Of a stretch of 64,000 nt of DNA, positions 4,935 through 34,700 are shown in pieces (the first letter of the stretch is position 1; every line of letters starts with the position of its first letter). A program made the translations under genes and the position numbers. The DNA comes from an uncultured Fidelibacterota bacterium (GTDB lineage Bacteria; Fidelibacterota; Marinisomatia; Marinisomatales; Marinisomataceae), in contig CACGRA010000002.1 in the NCBI GenBank assembly GCA_902575395.1, positions 13,613 through 77,612 of the forward strand. The letters are read 5' to 3'. The notes under the pieces were generated by a model that had not been told where the DNA came from, ran no database searches, and saw only the letters and a list, made by a program, of their open reading frames with translations.

Positions 4935-5242
4935 ATGTCTAAATCAAAAAAAGTAACAAAAGAAGAAGTAAAAAAAATAGCTACACTATCTAAGCTATCT
5001 TTATCTGAGTCAGAATTAAAGAATCATACAAAGGATATGAATAATATCTTAGAGTATATGGACTTATTAAATGAAATTGATACATCAAACACAGAAGAGT
5101 TAGTCAATGTGCATGATGCAAAAAGTGATTTAAGAGAAGACCAGTCAGAAGATTCTATTCCAAAAGATAAAGTCATTGATAATAGCCCTCAGTCTAAAGA
5201 AGATTACATTGAAATTCCTTTGGTTGTGAAAAAGGATAGCCA

Positions 5243-5246
<4 letters not shown>
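4935..5246 (+). CDS. gatC: Asp/Glu-tRNA amidotransferase subunit C
   Basis: About 100 aa. VKKIATLSKLSLSESELKNHTKDMNNILEYMDLLNEIDT matches the GatC pattern. Confidence 0.8.
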
Positions 5247-8348
<3,102 letters not shown>

Positions 8349-22320: not shown

Positions 22321-22393
22321 TCCGGAGTAGCTCAGTTGGTAGAGCGAGTGACTGTTAATCACCAGGTCGGGGGTTCGAGTCCCTCCTCCGGAG
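22321..22393 (+). tRNA. tRNA-Asn (anticodon GUU)
   Basis: Cloverleaf read by hand: acceptor TCCGGAG/CTCCGGA, D-arm GCTC..GAGC, anticodon loop CTGTTAA, T-loop TTCGAGT, discriminator G. CCA is not encoded. Confidence 0.9.
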
Positions 22394-22398
22394 CATCT

Positions 22399-23094
22399 AT
22401 GTCAGATAGAAAAAATATAAAATTAGTGATTATTGAAGATGACAAAGATATTCGAGAACTACTTTCATATAATATTTCAAGTCTAGGCTACCAAGTGCAT
22501 TCATTTTCAAATGGAGAATCTGGACTAAAACATCTTAGAAATAACAAGTCCAATTTGCTTCTTTTAGATTTAATGCTTCCAGGTATTAATGGATACGATA
22601 TTTGTAGAATTATTAAAAGCGACCCCAAATTAAAAGAACTTTTGATAATAATACTTTCAGCTAAAGGAGGTGAAACTGACATTGTAAAAGGTTTGGAATT
22701 GGGAGCAGATGATTACATAGTTAAACCATTTTCTAGTTCAATTCTTTCTGCTAGAATTTCTGCTGTTTTGAGGAGAGTTAAAAAAACAGATTCAATAATT
22801 TTGAATTTTGATGGTTTAAAAATAGATATTAGCAAACATCAAGTTAGTGTAAATGATTCTATAATAGATTTAACATTTAGTGAGTTTGAAATTTTAAGTA
22901 TACTTGCTCAAAATCCTGGTTTAGTGTATACCAGATCCCAAATAATTGACTCTATTAGAGGAGATAATTATCCTGCAACTGACAGAACAATTGATTTTCA
23001 AATTGTAGGATTAAGAAAAAAATTATCTACTGCAAAAAAATACATTAAAACTATTAGAGGCATAGGATATAAGTTTAATGATGAAGAAGATTAA
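22399..23094 (+). CDS. OmpR/PhoB-family response regulator (PhoB-like by context)
   Basis: I place the start at ATG 22399; the track ORF from 22255 reads through the tRNA. Receiver domain (KLVIIEDDKD, LLLDLMLPG) plus a winged helix (TIRGIGYKF). Confidence 0.85.
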   Translation: MSDRKNIKLVIIEDDKDIRELLSYNISSLGYQVHSFSNGESGLKHLRNNKSNLLLLDLMLPGINGYDICRIIKSDPKLKELLIIILSAKGGETDIVKGLELGADDYIVKPFSSSILSARISAVLRRVKKTDSIILNFDGLKIDISKHQVSVNDSIIDLTFSEFEILSILAQNPGLVYTRSQIIDSIRGDNYPATDRTIDFQIVGLRKKLSTAKKYIKTIRGIGYKFNDEED

Positions 23095-24118
23095 TACCCC
23101 GATTAATGATTTAAAGTCAGTTCTTGATACTATTCAATCGGGTATTATTTCTATTGATAAAGATAAATTTTTAATTTTTTTTAACGATAAAGCAAAAAGA
23201 ATATTTTCTTTATCTGAAGCATTCATTGGAAAACCAATATCAGGTATTGTTAGAAATCTCAAAATATTAAACTTCATTGAGCAATCAATGAAAGCTGTTG
23301 AAAATCATAATGAAATTAAAACCTTTGAAGAAGACTTTTTTATTGATGCTGCTCAATCTTTTGATGCAAAAGTAAGTTTTTTGAAAGTTGAAAGATCTGC
23401 TAAGCCGAAATATTTAATTGTTTTTAATGATATATCGTCTATCACACAATCGCAGAAATCCCAAAGAGAGTTTATCGAAAATGTATCTCATGAACTTAGA
23501 ACGCCAATCACTTCTATTTTAGCAGCTACTGAAACAATTCCTACAGAAACCCCATTTAGAGATATAATAATTAGACAATCTTTGAGAATGAATGAAATAA
23601 TTGATGACCTGTTACAGCTTTCTGTGCTAGAAAACAATTCTGATTTTAATATTCATAAAGAAGAGATTAGTCTGAGTGATTTAATTTTATTTTCTGTTGA
23701 AACTGTACAACACCTCGCGGATAAAAAAAATATAGATATTGAACAGCCTAAAGATTTTAATTGTTGCAATTTAAAGGTTGATATAAGCCTTATTCAAAAT
23801 GCATTATCCAACATTTTAAAAAATGCAATTATGTATTCAAATCAAAATAGCAAAATCAATATTATTTTGTCCAGCCAAAAAGATTCATGCATTATTGAAA
23901 TAGTTGATAATGGAAAAGGTATAAAGAAAGAAAATATTAAGAATATATTTAATAGATTTTTTCGAGAAGAATCTTCAAGAAGTAGAGATTATGGAGGCTT
24001 AGGTTTGGGATTACCAATTGTAAAAAAAATCCTAGATCTACACAATGGAGACATCACCATAGATAGTGATATAGACAAAGGAACTTCTGTAAAAATATTT
24101 TTACCTATTCAAACATAA
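23078..24118 (+). CDS. PAS-domain sensor histidine kinase without membrane anchor (PhoR-like by context)
   Basis: N-terminal PAS-like region, H-box SHELRTPITSI, N-box NILKNAIMYS, G-boxes DNGKGI and GGLGLGLPIV. No hydrophobic segment. Confidence 0.85.
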   Translation: MMKKINTPINDLKSVLDTIQSGIISIDKDKFLIFFNDKAKRIFSLSEAFIGKPISGIVRNLKILNFIEQSMKAVENHNEIKTFEEDFFIDAAQSFDAKVSFLKVERSAKPKYLIVFNDISSITQSQKSQREFIENVSHELRTPITSILAATETIPTETPFRDIIIRQSLRMNEIIDDLLQLSVLENNSDFNIHKEEISLSDLILFSVETVQHLADKKNIDIEQPKDFNCCNLKVDISLIQNALSNILKNAIMYSNQNSKINIILSSQKDSCIIEIVDNGKGIKKENIKNIFNRFFREESSRSRDYGGLGLGLPIVKKILDLHNGDITIDSDIDKGTSVKIFLPIQT

Positions 24119-24139
24119 TCCTAACATAAGCTTTATACA
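24113..24139 (+). promoter_or_regulatory. Candidate Pho-box-like direct repeat upstream of the TonB receptor gene
   Basis: ACATAATCCTA-ACATAAGCTTT. Contains AATCCTAACATAA, identical to 28782-28794. Lies 29-55 nt upstream of the TTG start at 24168. Confidence 0.35.
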
Positions 24140-24167
24140 TTTTCAGAATTTAAAAGGAGATGTAAAA

Positions 24168-27020
24168 TTGAGAATACTTCAAGTATTATTATTGTTTAGT
24201 TTCGTTTTTTGTCAAGATTTATCTGTTCTAACTGGTACTGTCATTGATAAGAATTCTGGAGAAGCTTTAGTCGGTGTAAATATCATTATTGAAGACTCAG
24301 ATAATGGCACTGCTTCAGATTTAAATGGCTCCTATACAATTTTTAACAAGCCTGGTGAAGTGGTGATAAATGTTTCTTATATAGGTTATAAGTCAGAAAG
24401 ATTTTCTATAGGTCTAATTGAAGGGCAAAATAATTTTAACATTGCTCTAACAATAGATGCAGTTCAGTTATCAGGGGTTGAGGTGACTGGTCAAGCAGTC
24501 GATGGTAGTGATATAAGCATCATGATTGAAAGAAAAGAATCATCTAATGTTGAAGATGCAATTAGTTTAGAAAGAATGTCTAAAGCGGGGGATTCTAATG
24601 CAGCAGATGCGTTTAGAAGAGTGACTGGTGTTTCTGTAGTTGATAATATTGTTGCTGTAAGAGGATTAGGTGATAGGTATACAAATACGCAATTAAATAA
24701 TTCCGATTTAGCTACTCCAGAACCTGAAAAAAGAGCTGTTCCTTTAGATCTTTTTTCCATTTCGATTATTTCTGGATTAAGTGCCAAAAAAACTTTTACT
24801 CCTGACTTACCTGGAACTTTTGCAGGAGGGGTTGTTAATATTAAAACTTTAGCATATCCAGATAGAAAAATCATGAAGCTAAAGTTTGGTGCCGGTACAA
24901 TATCATCAATTGATAATAGTAGATTTAGAACTTCGAATAATGGAATCAATTTCTTTGGCATAGTTGGGAATGATAGTAAAATGCCTGATGTTCCGAAAGA
25001 TTTTTGGTTGTCTGAGTTTAGATATCCATTAACAACTGGCTCAACCAATCCACAAAACTATACTTCTTCACAATGGCGTGAATTATTATCAATAAATACA
25101 AATAAATTCAAACAAAATTATCGTTTTAAGTCGAAAAGCACCAGTCCTCAGATTTCATTAGGTGTTGAAAATGGTCAAAAGTTCAATAGTTCAAATGGTA
25201 ATTATGAGTATGGATACTTTATAAATTATTCATTTGGTAATTCTTATGATTTTGAAGATGAAAATATTGGTAGATATTATGATAATACAAAACTATCAAG
25301 ATATTTAAATCTTCAAAGAGAAACATCAATTTATAATGCCAACCATGTATTAAACATGAGTACAGGTTTAAAATATTTACAAGATCACAAGTTTAAATTA
25401 TCTTTTTTATTTAGTCATAAAGCTAGCGATAAATTATCTTATGCTTCTGGGATACTTAAAAATTTAGAAGATGCAGTATCTATTCAACATTATTATAGTG
25501 AAAAATCTCTATCAAATTTGTCTCTGGAAGGGAATAGTATATTTTATTCTTCAAATCCAAGTGAACTTGATTGGTCAATAAATTTAGGTTCTGCCTCATT
25601 ATACGAACCTGATGTTGCTTCTCATACATATTCTAGACAAAGCGCATTAAATCCATACACTGTTGATGTTAGTAGTACGTCCCCAGGCTTAAGATTTTGG
25701 GCTAATGGTAATGATACGAATAATAGTTTAGATTTGTCTTACAAAGTTCAATTTGAAAACTTTCAATTGAAAAGTGGACTTAGAATTCAACAAAGAGATA
25801 GAACTTTTAAGAAAAGAATTTTTTATTATACTCATTCCACCGGGACATGGCCAAACAATATTCTTGAGGTTAATGATAATGATTTTGGAAGATCATTTGA
25901 CGAAGCAAACTTTTTTGATGGGAATAGTGGTTTAATTATTGTTGAAGAAGCAGCTCAGCTTGCAAGAGCTGCATACAATGCGGATGAAAAGACAAATGCA
26001 ATTTTCTCAATGATTGAAAGAAAATTTGATTCTTTTGATATACCAATTACTTTTATTGGTGGTATTAGATATGAAATGTATACATTGGATCTTAGACCAT
26101 ATAACACTGTAACTGGACAAACGTATGTCAACCCTTACAACAATCCTACGCAAGAGCCAACACTTGTAGATGTTGATGAAAATTATGTACTTCCTTCCAT
26201 CAATTTCATTTTGGATACTTCAAAGGATTCAAAAGTACGATTTTCCTTATCTCAAACTGTTGCAAGAGCAGAGTTTAGAGAATATGCACCTCTTGAATAT
26301 CAGGCATTTTATGGAGATGATCAATATATAGGAGTCCCGACACTTGAACAATCTGAAGTCACAAATTTTGATCTTAGATACGAAGTATATCCATCTGCAG
26401 GTGAAGTAAGGTCAATTTCATTATTTGCTAAAGATATGCAAAAACCTGTTGAAGAGGTATTATTGGTAAATGTTGAAAGATCATATAGCATGTATAATAA
26501 TGCAAAATCAGCATTGATTTATGGATTAGAGTTTGATATTAGAAAGAAGGTAAATCTATTTCCCTCATTAAGAGCTACCCAAATTTTAACTGCAAACGCT
26601 ACACTCTCATCATCGGATGTAGATGTAAACGATTTTGTGGTTTCTCCATTTGCAGTTACTCCAATTGAAGATCAAACTAATAGACCATTAATGGGTCATT
26701 CAGAATTTTTAGGCAATCTTGCCCTGGATACAATTCTTAGTTCTGGATATGAAATTTCTCTTTCTTATAATGGTTTTAGTGAAAGAATTATTAAAGTGGG
26801 AGATGTAACAGGACATTATTTTGAAGCACCTTTCCATTCTTTAAATTTTACTTCAAAGAAAAAATTTCAAAATGGATTATCAGTAAGTGTTAAGGCAAAG
26901 AATCTTTTAAATAATAAGATTGAACATTATCTTAAAACTGATGATGGAAATGAGTTAGATACAAAGATGCTTGAACCGGGAATATCTATATCCTTAAGTA
27001 TGACTTATGATTTTAATTAA
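24168..27020 (+). CDS. TonB-dependent receptor with N-terminal CarboxypepD_reg-like domain
   Basis: AAGGAG then a TTG start. Signal peptide, GTVIDKNSGEALVGVNI, plug domain (VRGLGDRYTNTQLN) and a long beta-barrel ending ...MTYDFN. Confidence 0.9.
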   Translation: MRILQVLLLFSFVFCQDLSVLTGTVIDKNSGEALVGVNIIIEDSDNGTASDLNGSYTIFNKPGEVVINVSYIGYKSERFSIGLIEGQNNFNIALTIDAVQLSGVEVTGQAVDGSDISIMIERKESSNVEDAISLERMSKAGDSNAADAFRRVTGVSVVDNIVAVRGLGDRYTNTQLNNSDLATPEPEKRAVPLDLFSISIISGLSAKKTFTPDLPGTFAGGVVNIKTLAYPDRKIMKLKFGAGTISSIDNSRFRTSNNGINFFGIVGNDSKMPDVPKDFWLSEFRYPLTTGSTNPQNYTSSQWRELLSINTNKFKQNYRFKSKSTSPQISLGVENGQKFNSSNGNYEYGYFINYSFGNSYDFEDENIGRYYDNTKLSRYLNLQRETSIYNANHVLNMSTGLKYLQDHKFKLSFLFSHKASDKLSYASGILKNLEDAVSIQHYYSEKSLSNLSLEGNSIFYSSNPSELDWSINLGSASLYEPDVASHTYSRQSALNPYTVDVSSTSPGLRFWANGNDTNNSLDLSYKVQFENFQLKSGLRIQQRDRTFKKRIFYYTHSTGTWPNNILEVNDNDFGRSFDEANFFDGNSGLIIVEEAAQLARAAYNADEKTNAIFSMIERKFDSFDIPITFIGGIRYEMYTLDLRPYNTVTGQTYVNPYNNPTQEPTLVDVDENYVLPSINFILDTSKDSKVRFSLSQTVARAEFREYAPLEYQAFYGDDQYIGVPTLEQSEVTNFDLRYEVYPSAGEVRSISLFAKDMQKPVEEVLLVNVERSYSMYNNAKSALIYGLEFDIRKKVNLFPSLRATQILTANATLSSSDVDVNDFVVSPFAVTPIEDQTNRPLMGHSEFLGNLALDTILSSGYEISLSYNGFSERIIKVGDVTGHYFEAPFHSLNFTSKKKFQNGLSVSVKAKNLLNNKIEHYLKTDDGNELDTKMLEPGISISLSMTYDFN

Positions 27021-27036
27021 GATTTCAAATGAAATC
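27021..27036. other. Perfect 16-bp palindrome GATTTCAAATGAAATC
   Basis: Read directly from the sequence. Starts 1 nt after the receptor stop codon and overlaps the ATCCTCA half-site. Confidence 0.8.
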
Positions 27037-27051
27037 CTCACAAATTTCTAA
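27034..27051 (+). promoter_or_regulatory. Weaker 11-bp-phased repeat ATCCTCA-N4-TTTCTAA upstream of the lipoprotein gene
   Basis: Same phasing as the ATCCTAA-N4-ATCCTAA repeat at 28783-28800. Each half-site matches at 5-6 of 7 positions. Confidence 0.2.
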
Positions 27052-27131
27052 TAGCAAACTAAATCGTAAAGCCTATTTTCGTTCGGAAATTTGAATATTT
27101 CACATAATTAATTAATTAAGAGGATAAAAAA

Positions 27132-28715
27132 ATGAATAGTAAAAAAATCATATTTTCAATCTTTGCAACTGTGTTTCTTTTAACATCTTGTGAGGATGAT
27201 ACAGAAACTGTAGATAATACTACTCTTCCTCCATCTGCACAGGCATTTGTAGCTGAGCATGTGATGGGAACATTAACCTATAATTTTGCAATTTCAGACG
27301 ATCAGGCTGCTTCTACTGGTACTGGTACTGGAGTACAATATTCATGGGATTTTAATGGTGAGGCAACTGCTGTTGCTCCAAGTGGTTCTCATACATTTTC
27401 TTCAAACGGTTTAAAAACTGTTACATTAACAGTTACTACAACTGCGTTGGATGGCGTAACAACTTTGACAGATTCATATTCCATGGATATGATCGTTGAA
27501 AGAAGTTTATATGGAGATATTACTTCAGATTTAGACTTAGATGGTGACTATGTTCTTTCAGGTCAGCTTCAAGTAAGAGACGGTGCAACGTTAACAATCG
27601 CAGCTGGTTCAAATATTTATGCTTTATCAGATGATGGTAATGGAAATGCTCCAGCAATTATAGTTTGGCAAGGTGGAAAAATTGAAGCAGTAGGTACTGC
27701 TAGTGATCCGATAATTATGACATCAGTTATTGCAAGAGATGAACCAGACAGACTTCCAATTGTTGGTGGTAGAGCATGGGGTGGATTAATTATCTGTGGC
27801 TATGCACCAATTCAAGGTGGAGGAACTAGAACTGTTGAGGGTGTTGCATCAGTGCCTTATGGTGGTACAGATGCTGCTGATGACTCTGGTACATTAAGAT
27901 ATGTTTCAGTGCGTTATGGTGGTAGAGCAATTGCTCCAGATAATGAAATCAATGGTATTACATTAGCTGGTGTTGGATCCGGAACAGAAGTTAGTTACTG
28001 CGAAGTTGCTTACAACTTTGATGACGGTTTTGAAATGTTTGGTGGAACTGTTGATTTAAGATATTGTATGGTATACAAAGTTGGTGATGATGCATTTGAT
28101 ACTGATACTGGATACCAAGGAACAGGACAATTTTTAGTAGTTGTCAGGGGACCAAATTCAAACAGAGGTCATGAAATGGATGGAAGAAATAGTGGCCAAG
28201 CTGCTGATGATTCATTCCCTAAATTCTCTAATGTGACAATTGTTGGAAATAATAGCGGATCTTCCGAAGATGAATCTTTAAGATTAAGAGAGGGAACTGC
28301 TGGACATTTCCAAAATTATATGTTAGTAGATCAGCAAAGAAGAGGTTTCCGTGCAACTAATGAAGATGGAAATTTAGATGGAACATTTGTTGTAAATGGT
28401 TCAACTCCTCCTTCCGATGATGCTGATGGAAGATATATTTGGTTAGACCCATTAAATGTTATGGATGATGTTCCAACTCCTGCAACAGTTGCAGCAACAG
28501 ATGGAACTGATCCTGGTGCGAACTTTACATTTAATATACAAGATGGAAACACAGGAGTTACAGAATCGAACTTACTTCCATCAACTGAATTTACAGGCTC
28601 AACCCCGACTGAAGCTAGTATGGATGCATCCGCAACATTTGTAGGTGCTTTAAAAGCTGGTTACAATGATGATGCATTTGATGGTTGGACAGTATGGTCT
28701 GAAGAAAGTCAATAA
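27132..28715 (+). CDS. Uncharacterised surface lipoprotein: PKD-like domain + beta-helix-like repeats
   Basis: AAGAGGA SD. Signal with LLTSC lipobox. PKD-like segment YSWDFNGEAT...GLKTVTLTV. Repeats with a DDGFEMFGG / GDDAFDTDTGY pattern. Sits directly after the TonB receptor. Confidence 0.6.
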   Translation: MNSKKIIFSIFATVFLLTSCEDDTETVDNTTLPPSAQAFVAEHVMGTLTYNFAISDDQAASTGTGTGVQYSWDFNGEATAVAPSGSHTFSSNGLKTVTLTVTTTALDGVTTLTDSYSMDMIVERSLYGDITSDLDLDGDYVLSGQLQVRDGATLTIAAGSNIYALSDDGNGNAPAIIVWQGGKIEAVGTASDPIIMTSVIARDEPDRLPIVGGRAWGGLIICGYAPIQGGGTRTVEGVASVPYGGTDAADDSGTLRYVSVRYGGRAIAPDNEINGITLAGVGSGTEVSYCEVAYNFDDGFEMFGGTVDLRYCMVYKVGDDAFDTDTGYQGTGQFLVVVRGPNSNRGHEMDGRNSGQAADDSFPKFSNVTIVGNNSGSSEDESLRLREGTAGHFQNYMLVDQQRRGFRATNEDGNLDGTFVVNGSTPPSDDADGRYIWLDPLNVMDDVPTPATVAATDGTDPGANFTFNIQDGNTGVTESNLLPSTEFTGSTPTEASMDASATFVGALKAGYNDDAFDGWTVWSEESQ

Positions 28716-28750
28716 AATCATTTATATCCTATTGTGTGATTGTAGCAAAG

Positions 28751-28780
28751 AGGGAAGTAAAAACTTCCCTTTTTGCTTTT
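28751..28780 (+). terminator. Rho-independent terminator after the lipoprotein gene
   Basis: 8-bp stem AGGGAAGT/ACTTCCCT, loop AAAA, then TTTTGCTTTT. Confidence 0.7.
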
Positions 28781-28782
28781 CA

Positions 28783-28804
28783 ATCCTAACATAATCCTAA
28801 AAAT
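28783..28804 (+). promoter_or_regulatory. Candidate Pho-box-like direct repeat upstream of phoU
   Basis: ATCCTAAcata-ATCCTAAaaat: two exact 7-mers 11 bp apart, 30-51 nt upstream of ATG 28834. Confidence 0.4.
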
Positions 28805-28833
28805 TATTACGTACATTTCATATATTATGGAGA

Positions 28834-29487
28834 ATGAATTTGCCGAGTAGAATACAAGATTTAAATTATAATTTATTAAAACTAAGCTCATTAGTTGAAA
28901 CAAATATTAAGGATGCGTTTAGTGCAGTAGAAAAAAAAGATTTAGAGCTATCTAAAACTGTAATCAATACTGATTCAAAAATAAATATGATGGAAGTCGA
29001 AATAGAAAAAGAAGTAAATGATATTCTTGAAACATTCCGTCCTTCTGATAATGATTTGCGATATTTATTAGCTGCCTTGAAAATTAACAACGAGCTAGAA
29101 AGAATCGGAGATTATGCAACCAATATAGCTAGAAATACCCAGTTTATGGTTGAGCACCCAGATTTAGAGTTACCTGATGTTCTTGCTCATTCTGCTGAAA
29201 CTTTAACTTCAATGTTAAATAAGGCTATTAATGCATTTATTTTATCTAATGAACAAACAGCATTAGATGTGATTGAGATGGATGATATCATTGATAAAAA
29301 CAATAGAGAAATTTTTAGCATTTTTAAAGAAAAAACTATTAGTAACCCAGCATTTTTAAGACAATTTATTGTTTTTACCAATATTTCTCGATATGTTGAA
29401 AGAGCTGCAGATCACACAACCAATATAGCTGAAGATATTATTTTTCAAATTAATGGTAAAATAGTTAGACACGATGAAACAATTTAA
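28834..29487 (+). CDS. phoU: Phosphate signalling modulator PhoU
   Basis: GGAG SD. Two PhoU repeats (ELERIGDYATNIA and YVERAADHTTNIAE). 217 aa. Confidence 0.85.
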   Translation: MNLPSRIQDLNYNLLKLSSLVETNIKDAFSAVEKKDLELSKTVINTDSKINMMEVEIEKEVNDILETFRPSDNDLRYLLAALKINNELERIGDYATNIARNTQFMVEHPDLELPDVLAHSAETLTSMLNKAINAFILSNEQTALDVIEMDDIIDKNNREIFSIFKEKTISNPAFLRQFIVFTNISRYVERAADHTTNIAEDIIFQINGKIVRHDETI

Positions 29488-29508
29488 ATTTTCAACAATC
29501 AATAAATA

Positions 29509-30492
29509 ATGGACTTTCTAACATTATGGTCTTTTTTTGGGTTTCTGTTTGCTGTGTATGCAGTTACTGCGAATGATAGTATTCAGACTCTAGGTACTTA
29601 CATCGCATCTAACAGAGCTGACGTCAAGTGGTACTGGATGTTTGCTTATATGGGATCAATTTTTGTATTTACTATGATTCAAGGCTTTAATGCTGGAGAC
29701 CCTGCTTTTGGTAGATTAACCGAATTCCCAGAAATTGAAATCATGTGGTATCATGCATTAGCACCACTTGTTTTAGTTGTTTTAACTAGAGTAAAAATTC
29801 CTGTATCAACTACTTTCTTAGTTTTATCTGTTTTTGCTGCTAGCGTTGATGGTCTTATGGAAAAAATGCTTTTAAAAAGTTTTGTTGGATATGGAGTTTC
29901 ATTTGTTTTTGCATTTGCTGCATGGTATTTCATAAGTAAATATATTTTATATGAGGGTGAAAAAGGTAATAATAAGTACAATAATTACTGGAGAACTGCC
30001 CAATGGATTACAACTGGATGGCTTTGGTCAACTTGGCTTTCACATGATATGGCAAACATTATGGTTTTCTTACCAAGATACTCATCAGTCCCTACATTAG
30101 GTTTTCAAATACTTGTAGTTGGAATGATGTTACTAGGATTAGCTTTTATGTTTTATGAAAGGGGTGGAAAAATACAAGAAATTGTATTAACTAAAACCAA
30201 CACAAGATATGTTCGTTCTGCTACTTTAGTTGATTTAGTATATGTATTTGTACTTTATTACTTTAAAGAAGTCAATGACCTTCCTATGAGTACTACATTT
30301 GTATTTATGGGCATGTTAGCAGGAAGGGAAATTGGTATTATCTTTGCTCAAGGCTATGGAACTCTTAGGTATACCAATAAAAACGTAAAAGCTATTTTTC
30401 CAATGCTCTATACAGACTTTGCTCGATTAATGTTAGGGTTAGCTATTAGTATAACGCTTGCATATGGCATACAATGGTATAGCAATCTATAG
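29509..30492 (+). CDS. Polytopic membrane protein, divergent PiT/PHO4-like putative phosphate permease
   Basis: Two-repeat layout. TANDSIQTLGT and SHDMANIM sit where PiT has GANDVAN, and PVSTTF and PMSTTF sit where PiT has PVSTTH. Lies directly after phoU. Confidence 0.45.
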   Translation: MDFLTLWSFFGFLFAVYAVTANDSIQTLGTYIASNRADVKWYWMFAYMGSIFVFTMIQGFNAGDPAFGRLTEFPEIEIMWYHALAPLVLVVLTRVKIPVSTTFLVLSVFAASVDGLMEKMLLKSFVGYGVSFVFAFAAWYFISKYILYEGEKGNNKYNNYWRTAQWITTGWLWSTWLSHDMANIMVFLPRYSSVPTLGFQILVVGMMLLGLAFMFYERGGKIQEIVLTKTNTRYVRSATLVDLVYVFVLYYFKEVNDLPMSTTFVFMGMLAGREIGIIFAQGYGTLRYTNKNVKAIFPMLYTDFARLMLGLAISITLAYGIQWYSNL

Positions 30493-30494
30493 AT

Positions 30495-31328
30495 ATGAAT
30501 GTAAAAAATAAAATCGTATTAGTTACAGGCGCTGCCAAAGGGATTGGATTAGCTACGGTTAAACGCTTACTTAAAAAAGAGGCAAAAGTAATTCTTTGGG
30601 ATTTCCAAGCAGATGATTTAGCCAACACTGTACAGTCTTTAAAAAATGAAGGACATGATGTTTTTTCCCAAGTATGTGATGTAACAAATAAGCAACAGGT
30701 CTATGCAAATGCAGATATCATTAGACAAGAAGTAGGGGAAGTAGATATCTTGATTAATAATGCTGGCACTGTATATACAGGATATATGCTAGACAGAACG
30801 GATGAAGAATTAGAAAATATGATCAATGTTAATTTTACATCTATGATTTATACTATTCGTGCTTTTCTTCCTTCTATGTTAGATAGAAATTTTGGACATG
30901 TTATTAACATTTCATCAGCATCTGCTCTTGTTGGCGCTCCTAAATTAGCAATATATGCTGCTACAAAATGGGGCGTAATGGGATTAACAGAATCATTGCG
31001 ATTGGAAGCGATAAAAATGGGTAAAAAAGGAGTAAAATTTTCTTCAATTCACCCAAATTTTATTAAAAAAGGATTATTTAGAGGGACCAAACTAAACTTT
31101 CTTGGTAATATTTTAGCACCAGGTATCAAAGATCATGATGCAGTTGCTAAAGTTATTATGAATCGTGCAATTCGTCTTGGATTTCATTCTCCAAAAGTGC
31201 CTTGGGTGATGAATCAATTAACTTTACTTAGAGCTTTAATCCCTAGCTCACTTTTGGTTAAATTAGGGTCTTTATATGGCGCAGATAATATGATGGATAA
31301 ATACAAAGGATACGAAGATGGACGTTAG
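30495..31328 (+). CDS. Short-chain dehydrogenase/reductase (SDR)
   Basis: TGAAKGIG cofactor motif, NNAG, and the catalytic YAATK. Confidence 0.85.
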   Translation: MNVKNKIVLVTGAAKGIGLATVKRLLKKEAKVILWDFQADDLANTVQSLKNEGHDVFSQVCDVTNKQQVYANADIIRQEVGEVDILINNAGTVYTGYMLDRTDEELENMINVNFTSMIYTIRAFLPSMLDRNFGHVINISSASALVGAPKLAIYAATKWGVMGLTESLRLEAIKMGKKGVKFSSIHPNFIKKGLFRGTKLNFLGNILAPGIKDHDAVAKVIMNRAIRLGFHSPKVPWVMNQLTLLRALIPSSLLVKLGSLYGADNMMDKYKGYEDGR

Positions 31329-32052
31329 AAAAATTTTATTAATAATATTTTTAATTGCAGCTTGTAATCAGACTGATTCTAGCGATGAAGATGTACCTCT
31401 TTCTACATTTAAAGACTCTCTTAGTTATTCTATGGGAATTAATATAGGAAAAAATTTACCACCTTATGCTGATGTTGATAAAGATTTAGTAAAAAAAGGA
31501 CTAGATGATTTCTTTGAAGATAATGAACCATTGTTAGATGCGGCTGAGAGGCAACAAATCTTAAGAGAATTCAATGTTTCAATGGCTGAACTTGAAAGAG
31601 ATGAGATGAGAGCGCAAGGAGAAGAATATCAGCAATTATCAAGAGAAAATAAAATAGCAGGTCAAGAATTTCTTGATCAAAATAAAACCAAAGAAGGTGT
31701 TTTGGTAAGAAGAAGTAATCTTCAATTTAAAGAGATTGTAAGAGGAACAGGTATAGTTCCAGATTATGACGATGTAGTCACTGTTCATTATACTGGTTAC
31801 CTTGTTGATGGCCATAAATTTGATAGCAGTTATGATCGCGGTGAGCCTGCTATATTTCCAGTGAAAGGAGTCATTCCTGGATGGACCGAAATATTACAGA
31901 TTATGCCTGTTGGTTCTAAGTGGGAAGTTTACATTCCATATAATTTAGCATATGGTGAAAGGGGAATACAAGGACCAGAAAAAGGCACTTATGTTATTCC
32001 ACCTTCAGCAACACTAATTTTTGAAATTGAATTGCTTGGAATTTCTGATTAA
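31318..32052 (+). CDS. FKBP-type peptidyl-prolyl isomerase lipoprotein (Mip/FkpA-like)
   Basis: LIAAC lipobox, N-terminal helical domain and an FKBP core (VTVHYTGYLVDGHKFDSSYDRGEP...IPGW). Confidence 0.85.
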   Translation: MDVRKILLIIFLIAACNQTDSSDEDVPLSTFKDSLSYSMGINIGKNLPPYADVDKDLVKKGLDDFFEDNEPLLDAAERQQILREFNVSMAELERDEMRAQGEEYQQLSRENKIAGQEFLDQNKTKEGVLVRRSNLQFKEIVRGTGIVPDYDDVVTVHYTGYLVDGHKFDSSYDRGEPAIFPVKGVIPGWTEILQIMPVGSKWEVYIPYNLAYGERGIQGPEKGTYVIPPSATLIFEIELLGISD

Positions 32053-32064
32053 ATCTTATTTATT

Positions 32065-33027
32065 ATGAGATTTTATCCCACTTTTTATTTCAAGATAGTA
32101 TCAATTTTTATCATTCTTTTCTTATTCTCTAGCTGTGAGAATAATAAAAAATTTATTGTATCTGATGCTTTATTTTATACTGATTCCAAACCAGAATCAG
32201 CGATTGATAGCATTGGATTTCTTTTTAGAAAACATGTAATAGTTGTTACAGGTAAAGAAGCTAATCAATTGTATGTTTATAATGCAATGGATGGTGAATT
32301 GCAAAAGACTATTGATCGCGAGAATGCATACCCTAATGGTGTTACAATAGTTAATGATGAACTTGTATTGGTTACAGAGCGAGATATGCGTCATGTAGCT
32401 GTTTTTAATGCATCAATGGATTTTCTTGGCACATTTGGTTCAGATATTTTACGTCAACCTTATGGAATTACAAATTATAAACAAGAAGATGGTAGTTATA
32501 AAATTTTTGTCACTGATAGTTATGATTATAATCAGCCTCATCAAGATCGAATTATATCATGGGAACTACAACATGATGGAGACAAATTTTCTGTAAGCGA
32601 ACATAGTGTGTTTGGTGAATATACTTTATATCAAGTAGAGAGTATTATGGTTGATAGTCATTACCGCCGCTTATTAGTTGCTGATGAAATGGAAGAACAC
32701 TATAAGATAGCTGTATTGGATTTAGATACTGGTGAACATATGAATTCTACATTAGAAGATTTTAATTTTACTGAAGATCCAGAAGGAATTGCTTTAGTAT
32801 CAACAGGAGATAATACAGGATATTGGATTTGCACTGAACAAAGCAAAAACAATAATCGTTTCCATTTATTTGATAGAGAAAGTTTAGAATATATTGATTC
32901 ATTGTATTTAGAAGATATTCACTACACTGATGGAATTGCTACAGCTTATATGCACGGAAATTGGTATTTATATGCTTCTGATAATGATCATAGAGTAGGA
33001 GCATTTCTTCTACCTGAAATCAATTAG
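32065..33027 (+). CDS. Beta-propeller-phytase-like lipoprotein
   Basis: FSSC lipobox. Block-wise resemblance to Bacillus PhyC-type phytases (LYVYNAMDGEL, PYGITNYKQEDGSYKIFVTD, DPEGIALV, YTDGIA). Catalytic competence has not been assessed. Confidence 0.5.
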   Translation: MRFYPTFYFKIVSIFIILFLFSSCENNKKFIVSDALFYTDSKPESAIDSIGFLFRKHVIVVTGKEANQLYVYNAMDGELQKTIDRENAYPNGVTIVNDELVLVTERDMRHVAVFNASMDFLGTFGSDILRQPYGITNYKQEDGSYKIFVTDSYDYNQPHQDRIISWELQHDGDKFSVSEHSVFGEYTLYQVESIMVDSHYRRLLVADEMEEHYKIAVLDLDTGEHMNSTLEDFNFTEDPEGIALVSTGDNTGYWICTEQSKNNNRFHLFDRESLEYIDSLYLEDIHYTDGIATAYMHGNWYLYASDNDHRVGAFLLPEIN

Positions 33028-33034
33028 AAATAAT

Positions 33035-33847
33035 ATGTTACAATACTTCTTAATGAATGCCTGGAGATTTCCTATTATAAAACGTGCATGGGTATTACCT
33101 AAAATGTCTGCTGATTCTTTCAAACGGGATTTAAACGATAATCGTCCAATTGTTCTTTGTTGTGGAGATAGCATTACTCATGGGCACATAGGATATGATT
33201 GGGTAGGGTCATTGCGAGATAAAGATTCTTCAAAAATATATGTTAATGCTGGGGTAAATGGAGATTTAGCATGGAATCTAAATCAAAGATTGGAAAATGC
33301 CTTACAGTGTAATCCAGACTATATTACCATACTTATTGGCACAAATGATGCTATGGGTAGTCAAAAAATTCAGTTTATTCAAGAATCTTATGTTACAAAC
33401 AAAGAATTACCACAATTACCATCAATAGATTGGTATGAAAAAGAATTAGAATTGATGATTCAATATATACAATCTCATAGTAATGCAAAAATTGCTATTA
33501 GCACTTTACCTTGGGTGGGAGAACATGATTCCCATTCAATTATGGATGTTGTAAGAAATCATAATGTTATCATTAAAAATATAGCTGAAAAATACAATCT
33601 GACATTAATTGATTTATTTGATCATCTAAGTCATATTATTGGAAATAATAGCTCTAGTGCGCCTTATGTAACTACTCAATGGCGTACTATAAGAATTATT
33701 CGTGCAGTTATTTTGCACTATGTTTTTGGTTGGAATTGGGAAAAAATCGGAAAAAAATATGGTTTAAAAACAATGTGTGATCATATCCATTTAAATGAGA
33801 ATGGTGGAATTATTTTAGAAAATCTAATTGAGGAATTTCTCGACTAA
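33035..33847 (+). CDS. SGNH/GDSL-family hydrolase
   Basis: Block I CCGDSITHG, block III GTNDA, block V DHIHLN. The start is ambiguous (internal ATGs exist). Confidence 0.75.
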   Translation: MLQYFLMNAWRFPIIKRAWVLPKMSADSFKRDLNDNRPIVLCCGDSITHGHIGYDWVGSLRDKDSSKIYVNAGVNGDLAWNLNQRLENALQCNPDYITILIGTNDAMGSQKIQFIQESYVTNKELPQLPSIDWYEKELELMIQYIQSHSNAKIAISTLPWVGEHDSHSIMDVVRNHNVIIKNIAEKYNLTLIDLFDHLSHIIGNNSSSAPYVTTQWRTIRIIRAVILHYVFGWNWEKIGKKYGLKTMCDHIHLNENGGIILENLIEEFLD

Positions 33848-33861
33848 AAATACCAATTTTT

Positions 33862-33909
33862 TCGTCGTACCCCGGATAGGATTTGAACCTATGACCTACG
33901 GATTAGAAA
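33862..33909. repeat. 48-bp direct repeat, copy 1 (tRNA-Arg 3' half + trailer)
   Basis: TCGTCGTACCCCGGATAGGATTTGAACCTATGACCTACGGATTAGAAA is identical at 34621-34668. Confidence 0.95.
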
Positions 33910-33922
33910 ATCGTTGGTCTTT
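33862..33922 (-). pseudogene. 3' fragment of tRNA-Arg(UCU) (pseudo-tRNA)
   Basis: 48 nt are identical to the 3' part of the intact tRNA-Arg plus its 6-nt trailer. A further 13 nt match at 9 positions. The acceptor 5' strand is absent. Confidence 0.75.
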
Positions 33923-33964
33923 TGAGGAAAAAATTGAAGGAATATTGATCTTACATAATAAATA

Positions 33965-34471
33965 CTAATCAATTGGCACTGGACCATATTCATTTTCTTC
34001 CAAGTCTCCAGATTGAATCAAAAATATGAGAAAAATAAGTTGTCCAAGATATGGAATAAGATTTAAAATAAGTAACCACCAACCACTCCTACCACAATCG
34101 TGTAATCTTCTTATAGGTATGGAAATAGTATTGTGTATTAAGCATAGAGGAAGTAGTGGTATTAATATAAGGCCGAATGTTAAAGGTACTCCAATCAAAA
34201 CAGTCAAAAAATAATATAATGAAAACATCCAAAATCCTTTTGGACTTTCTCTTGTTTTCCAATCTAAGGTTTGATATCGAAGTTTATATAAAAAATATAT
34301 TTTATATGAACCTATAAGACCGCCTTGTTCTCTTGCTTTATTTTCTCTAGCAAACCTGTCCGATATCTCAATAACTTCATTTGTTTTATCATCAATCCAT
34401 TCACCACAATGTTTACATTTAATAGCTTTTTCTTGGATTTCTTCAGCACAATACGGACATTTTTTTCTCAT
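33965..34471 (-). CDS. Zinc-ribbon + DUF805 membrane protein
   Basis: N-terminal CPYCAEEI...CKHCGEWI. C-terminal DUF805 hallmarks RRLHDCGRSGWW and ENEYGPVP. Three or four TM segments. Confidence 0.75.
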   Translation of the reverse strand: MRKKCPYCAEEIQEKAIKCKHCGEWIDDKTNEVIEISDRFARENKAREQGGLIGSYKIYFLYKLRYQTLDWKTRESPKGFWMFSLYYFLTVLIGVPLTFGLILIPLLPLCLIHNTISIPIRRLHDCGRSGWWLLILNLIPYLGQLIFLIFLIQSGDLEENEYGPVPID

Positions 34472-34556
34472 GAATTAAATATAGAATAATTCTTCTCTAA
34501 TATAAATACTAATCTTCACAACGGATTTTCTAACTGTTGACTGAAGATCAGTGAAT

Positions 34557-34578
34557 TTTTGTAGTAGTTTTGTAGTAG
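34557..34578. repeat. Perfect tandem 11-bp repeat TTTTGTAGTAG x2
   Basis: Read directly from the sequence. Lies 86-107 nt upstream of the minus-strand DUF805 start, next to a TTGACC on the minus strand. Confidence 0.9.
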
Positions 34579-34620
34579 GTCAAAAATAGAGTTTTTAAAA
34601 AGAGTAAAAAGGGGAGTTTG

Positions 34621-34668
34621 TCGTCGTACCCCGGATAGGATTTGAACCTATGACCTACGGATTAGAAA
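34621..34668. repeat. 48-bp direct repeat, copy 2 (inside and behind the intact tRNA-Arg)
   Basis: Identical to 33862-33909. Confidence 0.95.
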
Positions 34669-34700
34669 TCCGTTGCTCTATCCAGCTGAGCTACCGGGGC
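34627..34700 (-). tRNA. tRNA-Arg (anticodon UCU)
   Basis: Reverse complement GCCCCGGTAGCTCAGCTGGATAGAGCAACGGATTTCTAATCCGTAGGTCATAGGTTCAAATCCTATCCGGGGTA. Anticodon loop TTTCTAA. CCA is not encoded. Confidence 0.9.

Follow-up and report, generated by a model that had tools for sequence, protein, structure and literature searches.

The stretch of DNA considered here, a 64 kb segment of contig CACGRA010000002.1 (hereafter the window), is low-GC DNA of SAR406 (Marinimicrobia), which ranks among the most abundant uncultured bacterial lineages of the ocean interior. Between a tRNA-Asn gene and a tRNA-Arg fragment it carries ten co-directional genes, which a sequence-only reading of this DNA had described as one Pho-type locus lacking Pst genes. 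All ten open reading frames (ORFs) were confirmed at the positions first given, and both tRNA landmarks are real, as established by ARAGORN and by an exact 43-nt copy. As a single locus, however, the ten genes came apart: a mobile cassette with the regulatory, transporter and phoU genes moves independently of a backbone encoding a short-chain dehydrogenase/reductase (SDR), an FKBP lipoprotein, a phytase-like lipoprotein and an SGNH hydrolase, so that a mobile cassette and a core gene string together form a mosaic. We consider it reasonably probable that the locus represents a flexible island for phosphorus scavenging under Pho control, comprising regulators, a TonB-dependent transporter (TBDT) with a lipoprotein of the ElpS/FII/BT4056 type and PhoU, that was imported by recombination.

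Gene content and regulatory signals

The tRNA-Asn(GTT) gene (22321..22394) and all ten genes lie on the plus strand. The first gene encodes a PhoB-type response regulator of 231 residues (22399..23094) with REC and Trans_reg_C domains (Pfam), and the second a soluble PAS-HisKA-HATPase histidine kinase of 346 residues that is PhoR/PnpS-like by Pfam and NCBIfam (23078..24118). The best NCBIfam matches of the regulator are to PhoB (TIGR02154, 211.7 bits) and to a Bacteroidetes PhoB model (203 bits), with cutoffs of 296 and 270, respectively; the next is BaeR at 178 bits. The kinase matches PnpS (247.6 bits) and PhoR (211.6 bits) best, both below cutoff. It had been called anchor-less, and no hydrophobic or transmembrane segment was found in it (maximum 19-residue Kyte-Doolittle value, 0.92). 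It therefore appears to be a truncated, soluble variant of the PhoR type that kept its PAS, HisKA and HATPase domains and lost its membrane anchor. Its orthologues in two related loci (L006 and L009; comparison loci are given L numbers throughout) are 588-589 residues long, that of L009 with a HAMP domain.

The start codon of phoB lies 4 nt past the 3' end of tRNA-Asn (22390-22401), and the sole Shine-Dalgarno-like sequence before it, GGAG, is located within the tRNA acceptor stem; phoB-phoR may thus be carried on the transcript of the tRNA. Such a layout implies a tRNA-mRNA co-transcript from which 3' processing would remove the predicted ribosome-binding site.

The regulatory pair is followed by a TBDT of 950 residues (24168..27020) and a beta-helix lipoprotein of 527 residues, apparently of surface type (27132..28715). 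PhoU comes next, with 217 residues and two PhoU domains (28834..29487; PF01895, E 5.4e-38), and passes the TIGR02135 cutoff with 164.7 against 130.25 bits, bearing out its earlier naming. The last gene touched by the cassette encodes a PiT-like membrane protein of 327 residues with about 10 predicted helices (29509..30492), a remote relative of PHO4.

Three promoter gaps, and nothing else in the window, contain a Pho-box-like direct repeat, TYCWAAC-N4-TYCWAA with 11-bp spacing (at 24108, 27035 and 28784), where 0.4-0.5 occurrences would be expected by chance. The copy upstream of the TBDT gene, TTCAAAC-ATAA-TCCTAAC-ATAA (24108..24135), is conserved in L002-L004 and L017-L022 while neighbouring bases vary. 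Upstream of the lipoprotein gene the window has TCCTCAC-AAAT-TTCTAA (27035..27051), and relatives carry TTCAAACATAATTCTAACAAACTTCAAA at this site. The best match, TCCTAAC-ATAA-TCCTAAA (28784..28801), precedes phoU, where AATCCTAACATAATCCTAAA is invariant in nine of nine related island-bearing loci inspected and its flanks are variable. In L009, the stretch separating the lipoprotein gene from pstS contains the same motif twice. A binding site for a PhoB/OmpR-family regulator would be expected to look like this, and the cassette-encoded regulator presumably binds the repeats.

Between the lipoprotein gene and the third repeat lies a terminator-like hairpin with a U-run (28744..28777; -25.7 kcal/mol, z-score -6.06), whose position is conserved in relatives; a scan for terminators missed it, and it was later confirmed by folding. 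A scan for sigma-70 promoters did not rise above chance (65 found, 70 expected).

Taken together, these features support the Pho-type designation made earlier: the top-scoring families are PhoB for the regulator and PhoR/PnpS for the kinase, PhoU is a true family member, and the promoters carry Pho-box-like repeats. Linkage to the Pho regulon is found within the cassette, as phoU, and in orthologous loci, where the transporter-lipoprotein pair lies beside phoBR together with pstSCAB-phoU (L006, L009) or beside PHO4 genes (L005).

Cassette boundaries, gain and loss

The cassette extends from position 22395 to about 30350, roughly 8 kb, and contains the phoB-like gene, the PAS kinase gene, the TBDT and lipoprotein genes, phoU and most of the PiT-like gene. 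Its limits emerge from comparison with L090, an island-less locus that is 99.35% identical to the window through position 22394, the 3' end of tRNA-Asn, where the identity ends, and 98-100% identical again from about 30350. The cassette itself is 90-100% identical to L017, L020 and L002, whereas the flanks of those loci reach only 70-78%. Sliding identity profiles against L017 and L090 place the right crossover at 30300..30400, to the left of which the window is about 100% identical to L017. The 5' part of the window's PiT-like allele, about 85% of it, thus arrived with the cassette.

The unoccupied site is represented by L014, a SAR406 contig of 1 Mb in which the genes upstream of the cassette (tricorn-like protease, TGT, AhpC, HIT, sodium:solute symporter and tRNA-Asn) lead straight on to those for the PiT-like protein, SDR, FKBP, a 285-residue protein and GDSL. 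Between tRNA-Asn and the PiT-like gene, none of the genes for regulator, kinase, TBDT, lipoprotein and PhoU is present there. Presence and absence were scored more widely by tblastn of the window proteins against the loci fetched, 80 of which came from a metagenome scan. Seven metagenome loci contained the cassette and 35 informative ones did not; as the window's own allele served as the seed of the scan, these proportions do not give its frequency in the population. The PiT-like gene is present in the 35 island-less loci and is thus a core SAR406 gene at this site. In the cassette-less loci L024-L026, L037, L038, L077 and L090, the backbone genes are 93-99% identical to those of the window and the PiT-like protein only 73-82%; in cassette-bearing loci, the backbone genes reach only 53-80%.

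Loss of the cassette is documented by L023, in which an in-frame phoB'-'phoU ORF of 59 codons (5117-5295) fuses 27 codons from the start of phoB with 32 from the end of phoU. The junction coincides with an 8-bp microhomology, AATATTTC, and 6.9 kb of the cassette are missing; the ORF is a clean deletion scar.

A tRNA-targeting integrative island was considered and rejected, as the window contains neither an integrase ORF nor a tRNA-Asn fragment or att repeat elsewhere. These absences and the fit of the boundaries favor homologous recombination over a classical integrative island. Base composition of the cassette is not anomalous (GC 0.27-0.37, like the flanks). The mosaic identity pattern, the presence/absence data and the deletion scar therefore identify the cassette as a flexible genomic island, gained via conserved flanks and lost by deletion; by these comparisons, the window's copy appears to have been imported recently by homologous recombination, with tRNA-Asn as left anchor and, as right anchor, the PiT-like gene's conserved 3' end.

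Phosphate islands of Prochlorococcus and SAR11 are similar. The flexible phosphate-related islands that HIMB59 exchanges by homologous recombination (Molina-Pardines et al. 2023, PMC10734472) likewise occupy a fixed position, show higher identity within the island than across the genome, vary within species and recombine through conserved flanks. They differ in content, being built on a pstSCAB-phoU core with or without phoBR, phosphatases and ppk, whereas the SAR406 island is Pst-less and has a TBDT-lipoprotein core. Targeted literature searches for SAR406/Marinimicrobia returned no description of such a phosphate island.

The backbone genes downstream encode an SDR (30495-31328), an FKBP lipoprotein with a lipobox (31318-32052), an NHL/phytase-like propeller lipoprotein (32065-33027) and a GDSL hydrolase (33035-33847). 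Clear Pfam calls uphold the earlier assignments of the SDR, the FKBP lipoprotein and the SGNH/GDSL hydrolase. The naming of the propeller as phytase-like held in part: it exceeds the PF02333 cutoff (27.2 against 21 bits), but the match is confined to positions 186-306 of a 375-position profile, a third of its length, and in searches of the PDB, NHL-repeat proteins score higher than Bacillus phytase 3amr (E 2.9e-5).

The sequence-only reading had joined all ten genes in one pathway, in which the TBDT imports a phytate-like organophosphate, the propeller (with the SGNH hydrolase) hydrolyses it in the periplasm and the PiT-like protein takes up the phosphate. Several observations would fit: from phoU through GDSL, neighbouring genes overlap or lie at most 21 bp apart, and in island-bearing genomes they could be co-transcribed from the Pho-box promoter; the propeller passes the phytase cutoff and weakly matches the Bacillus phytase; and in L134 a phytase gene lies 8 kb from a TBDT-lipoprotein pair. 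The distribution of the genes speaks against such a pathway. All four are kept in the 35 island-less loci, with window copies 96-99% identical to those of the island-less genomes L025 and L090 and no more than 53-76% identical to those of island-bearing lineages; the clades represented by L027-L033 lack both propeller and SDR; and none of the four lies beside the pair in L005, L006, L007, L009 or L133. With the partial phytase match and the better scores of NHL-repeat proteins added, we regard the single pathway as quite unlikely, and the SDR, FKBP, propeller and GDSL genes, found with or without the cassette, are best assigned to the backbone on these comparisons. Because the phytase-like gene belongs to the backbone, periplasmic hydrolysis by its product has no linkage support and phytate no specific support; phytate, polyphosphate or an organophosphate can only be conjectured as substrates.

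The gap between phoU and the PiT-like gene is only 21 bp, so that insertion places the PiT-like gene and the tightly packed backbone genes behind a Pho-box promoter.

A small separate insertion on the minus strand follows the GDSL gene (33867..34700), consisting of the tRNA-Arg fragment, an ORF for a zinc-ribbon/DUF805 membrane protein (33965-34471) and a tRNA-Arg(TCT) gene. Positions 33867-33909 are an exact 43-nt copy of 34626-34668 within the full tRNA (34626-34700), and this direct repeat of the tRNA-Arg 3' part brackets an insert of about 0.76 kb (about 33867-34625). Window positions 33705-34616, including the last ~140 bp of the GDSL gene, have no aligned counterpart in the 99%-identical L090. 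By its structure, the insert resembles what is left of a small element that targets tRNA genes.

The transporter-lipoprotein pair

The TBDT had been classified as a CarboxypepD_reg-type receptor, and its domains agree: a signal peptide is followed by a CarboxypepD_reg N-terminal domain (CarbopepD_reg_2), a TonB-box-like VEVTGQA, a plug and a barrel (Pfam). It reaches 174 bits against TIGR01782, below the cutoff of 310, and Pfam finds no N-terminal signalling (STN) domain. A SusC/SusD-type (PusCD) system was rejected, as TIGR04056 matches the N-terminal domain of the TBDT only (66 against 368 bits); there is no SusD-like gene at the locus, and the partner of the TBDT is a beta-helix protein.

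This partner has the lipobox LTSC with Cys20 followed by an acidic run, EDDTE, and is presumably surface-exposed, going by the Bacteroidota export-signal rule for an acidic run after the lipobox. Its earlier description as a PKD/beta-helix protein is substantiated by a PKD_4 domain (E 3.4e-8, Pfam) and by an AlphaFold2 (AF2) model from 32 sequences (pTM 0.74), which predicts a right-handed beta-helix with pLDDT mostly above 80 over residues ~125-450 and low-pLDDT dips at ~201-213 and ~351-360. In the PDB, the fold of the model comes nearest to pectate lyases and capsule polysaccharide lyases, with an E value of only 0.025, indicating a family without a solved close relative; a search of PDB sequences with the family profile gave nothing meaningful. 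An acidic cluster (D297, D298, E301, D320, D323, E348 and D350) is invariant in the family alignment. The acidic stretches DDGFEMFGG, DDAFDTD and EMD, at residues 297-350 on the beta-helix, form a candidate metal or ligand site.

Within Marinimicrobia, the lipoprotein recurs at 92-93% identity in four genomes; locus L001 is tied to a metagenome-assembled genome from the Mediterranean deep chlorophyll maximum. Beyond them, a homolog search from a Bacteroidales seed returned members from Phocaeicola, Prolixibacteraceae and Alteromonadales, all sharing the recent Pfam family PF28492 (Beta_helix_4); some carry type IX secretion system (T9SS) tails instead of lipoboxes. In every context retrieved (the window, L001-L004, L005, L006, L007, L009, L133 and L134), the Beta_helix_4 gene lies adjacent to a TBDT gene on the same strand, and the partner has the CarboxypepD_reg plus plug architecture in all but the Colwellia-type L007.

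Three of these contexts, from phylogenetically distant genomes, place the pair among Pho genes. In L006 (Mangrovibacterium diazotrophicum), pstS-C-A-B and phoU precede regulator, kinase, TBDT and lipoprotein; in L009, regulator, kinase, TBDT and a lipoprotein with a T9SS tail precede pstSCAB and phoU. L005, an uncultured contig of 2.3 Mb, combines regulator, TBDT and lipoprotein with two PHO4 transporters and an H+-pyrophosphatase. Conservation of gene order, which had been proposed as a check, held for the TBDT-lipoprotein pair, in these three genomes beside Pho genes, whereas the ten-gene set split. The PHO4 proteins that follow the pair in L005 (11466-18635) are unusually long, at 741-759 residues, and a membrane H+-pyrophosphatase accompanies them; these neighbours may hint at pyro- or polyphosphate as ligand.

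The pair has published counterparts. In the PUSIV phoBR operon of Flavobacterium johnsoniae, genes for PhoR (Fjoh_0543), PhoB (0544), a TBDT (0545) and the lipoprotein FII (0546) follow one another, and Fjoh_0545 and the pectin-lyase-fold Fjoh_0546 respond to phosphate depletion with strong and specific induction (Lidbury et al. 2021, PMC8115612). The cassette shares the phoB/phoR pair, the CarbopepD_reg_2 plus plug TBDT and the pectin-lyase-fold lipoprotein, an arrangement also seen in Bacteroidota L006 and in L009. It differs in that phoB precedes phoR (the locus tags of F. johnsoniae give phoR-phoB), the kinase has lost its anchor, OprP porin and CARDB lipoprotein genes are absent, phoU follows the pair without pstSCAB, and the whole set behaves as a mobile cassette.

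In Caulobacter crescentus, the surface-exposed lipoprotein ElpS (CC0170) is made on phosphate starvation, its gene lies beside that of the TonB-dependent receptor (TBDR) CC0171, and its family was reported to be widespread, with members in Shewanella and Bacteroides (Le Blastier et al. 2010, PMC2996285). Both systems thus set an outer-facing lipoprotein linked to phosphate starvation beside a TBDR gene. In Caulobacter, type II secretion system (T2SS) genes adjoin, the lipoprotein is released by proteolysis and the TBDR is reported to be constitutive, whereas the window has no T2SS genes nearby and its lipoprotein gene has its own Pho-box-like site.

The third counterpart is BT4055/BT4056, a TBDT and a putative "lid" whose genes stay close together in 621 genera (Price & Arkin 2023, bioRxiv 10.1101/2023.03.17.533168). 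It too is a non-SusC TBDT with an adjacent, same-strand lipoprotein of the pectin-lyase superfamily, kept together across phyla. That study linked no specific nutrient to the pair beyond citing Lidbury and ElpS, and its coverage lay outside Marinimicrobia, island dynamics and regulator sites.

Two earlier judgements change in this light. The lipoprotein had been called an orphan, yet its homologs carry PF28492, lie next to a TBDT in every context retrieved and match published pairs (PMC8115612, PMC2996285, Price & Arkin 2023). Likewise, the combination had seemed undescribed, whereas a TBDT with a pectin-lyase-fold lipoprotein in a phoBR operon had already been published as induced by phosphate starvation (PMC8115612). 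The phosphate-starvation TBDT-lipoprotein pair is therefore already known. We propose that the window lipoprotein is of the ElpS/FII/BT4056 type on the basis of fold, lipobox, adjacency, the Pfam family shared by its homologs and operon logic, not of direct alignment; ElpS, Fjoh_0546 and BT4056 were not among the matches of the Bacteroidales-seeded search.

The pair might instead handle a substrate without phosphorus, for example a metal chelate or a piece of acidic polysaccharide, with a generic OmpR/EnvZ-type regulator and an incidental phoU neighbour. Such a role would suit the fold, nearest to pectate and capsule polysaccharide lyases, and the invariant acidic cluster, typical of Ca-dependent sugar-acid binding; the regulator also scores below the PhoB cutoff. 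Some pairs, moreover, lie beside TonB-ExbBD or unrelated genes, without Pho genes. In the Colwellia-type L007 (10001-21053), a 911-residue Beta_helix_4 protein and its TBDT precede a DUF3450-ExbB-ExbB-ExbD-TonB-TPR cluster, which by gene content links this pair to a probable dedicated energising TonB2-type system rather than to Pho genes, and the Bacteroidota-type L133 and L134 have the pair with no Pho genes adjacent. Opposed to this stand the top-scoring families of the regulator and kinase, PhoB and PhoR/PnpS; the recurrent linkage to pstSCAB-phoU or PHO4 in L005, L006 and L009; the common upstream repeat, which also precedes pstS in L009; and the induction of the F. johnsoniae counterpart by phosphate depletion and not by N or Fe limitation (PMC8115612). 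We judge a non-phosphorus role improbable.

The work on ElpS raises a further alternative, namely that the lipoprotein aids phosphatases outside the cell rather than serving as a transport partner, and that the TBDT is chiefly a sensor or takes up the released product by itself. ElpS overexpression raises alkaline phosphatase activity in the supernatant, and a T2SS-dependent protease frees ElpS from the cell surface (PMC2996285); the T9SS tails that replace lipoboxes in some homologs would also fit this role. The cassette, by contrast, contains no phosphatase gene (Pfam), and its TBDT has no STN domain. Adjacency to a TBDT is strict in all contexts here and in 621 genera, and AlphaFold-Multimer predicts that the lipoprotein binds on the TBDT's outer face (Price & Arkin). 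A phosphatase-helper function is therefore very doubtful for this pair, and the reading of the cassette as a phosphorus-scavenging island is retained below.

Possible phosphate uptake without Pst

In the window, phoU lies directly upstream of the PiT-like gene; elsewhere it lies downstream of pstB. As the sequence-only reading had noticed, Pst genes are missing from the locus; a search of the window and of 20 kb around related loci turned up no pstS, pstC or pstA.

The call of a PiT-like permease held less well, coming down to remote, sub-threshold similarity. The window protein itself has no Pfam or NCBIfam match. Among its relatives, 14 of 15 close and 9 of 30 distant ones match PHO4 (PF01384), at 14-29.4 bits and thus under the cutoff of 33.7. 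Each half of these relatives matches either half of the PHO4 profile, as expected from the internal repeat of PiT. Both halves of the 327-residue protein weakly resemble the PiT repeat unit; motifs like the PiT signature occur in one half (ANDSIQTLGT, IPVSTTF) and in the other (HDMANI, LPMSTTF). Alignment of the family profiles to a true PHO4 protein (of L005) with hhalign gave only 9-17% probability, a search of PDB sequences with them gave no meaningful match, and the protein is about 100 residues shorter than a typical PiT. On this evidence it is probably a remote relative of the PiT superfamily rather than a demonstrated PiT.

The PiT-like family comprises about 780 cluster representatives. 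Homologs 72% identical to the window protein were observed within T4-like myovirus contigs (L011-L013, L086, L089 and L096-L132), which also carry UvsY, UvsW, gp44/gp45, talC, hsp20 and 2OG-Fe(II) oxygenases. The family occurs in 37 IMG/VR contigs and was not found in GenBank phage records, that is, in cultured phages. The phage copy could represent an auxiliary metabolic gene related to phosphate that has so far gone undescribed, and could point to SAR406 as the host of these phages.

The mechanism we propose for the island would begin with low phosphate, upon which the soluble kinase would phosphorylate the regulator. Binding of the regulator to the 11-bp-spaced TYCWAAC direct repeats would then induce the TBDT, the lipoprotein and the phoU-PiT-like gene string. 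At the surface, the lipoprotein would capture an anionic phosphorus ligand, candidates being an orthophosphate-metal complex, pyro- or polyphosphate or a phosphoester polymer, possibly via metal ions on the acidic cluster, as pectate lyases hold polyanions. It would pass the ligand to the TBDT for TonB-energised import, after which phosphate would cross the inner membrane, plausibly through the PiT-like permease. PhoU, acting without PstSCAB, may couple the activity of that permease to the soluble kinase in place of PstB; this coupling is hypothetical.

Several observations weigh against this account of a phosphorus-scavenging island. The regulator and the kinase both fall under their NCBIfam equivalog cutoffs. 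The absence of Pst applies only to the window and to 20 kb around the related loci. The link to PiT depends on sub-threshold scores, and the protein's AF2 model, made from a shallow alignment, is low at pLDDT 41.5. The beta-helix of the lipoprotein would suit a polysaccharide lyase or binding protein equally well, and its likeness to ElpS, Fjoh_0546 and BT4056 is drawn from fold, lipobox, adjacency, the Pfam family of its homologs and operon logic. As the pairs of L007, L133 and L134 have no Pho neighbours, the family is not exclusively phosphate-linked. Purified ElpS, in addition, had no phosphatase activity, and the intracellular phosphate concentration was unchanged on a shift from rich to poor medium (PMC2996285).

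A bolder extension can be formulated, which we offer tentatively and think rather unlikely as a whole. In SAR406 cells that apparently have no Pst, the ElpS-type lipoprotein and the TBDT would constitute a TonB-energised, high-affinity outer-membrane importer of inorganic phosphorus (an orthophosphate-metal complex or pyro-/polyphosphate); PhoU and the PiT-like protein would replace PstSCAB-PhoU as the flux sensor reporting to a soluble PhoR; and the PiT-like family would be a hitherto unrecognised phosphate-uptake auxiliary gene of uncultured T4-like marine phages.

For SAR406, the occurrence of the same backbone with and without a compact Pho cassette provides a natural experiment on selection at scarce phosphate. 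The combination of PhoU, a PiT-like protein and a soluble PhoR hints at Pho signalling without Pst, and the phage-borne PiT-like copies suggest a new auxiliary metabolic gene. The TBDT-lipoprotein pair itself is an orphan transporter family in hundreds of genera, for which this minimal, pst-less version narrows the hypotheses. If true, the reading of the pair as a Pst-less importer would give a TBDT-lid family of more than 600 genera its first substrate and its logic.

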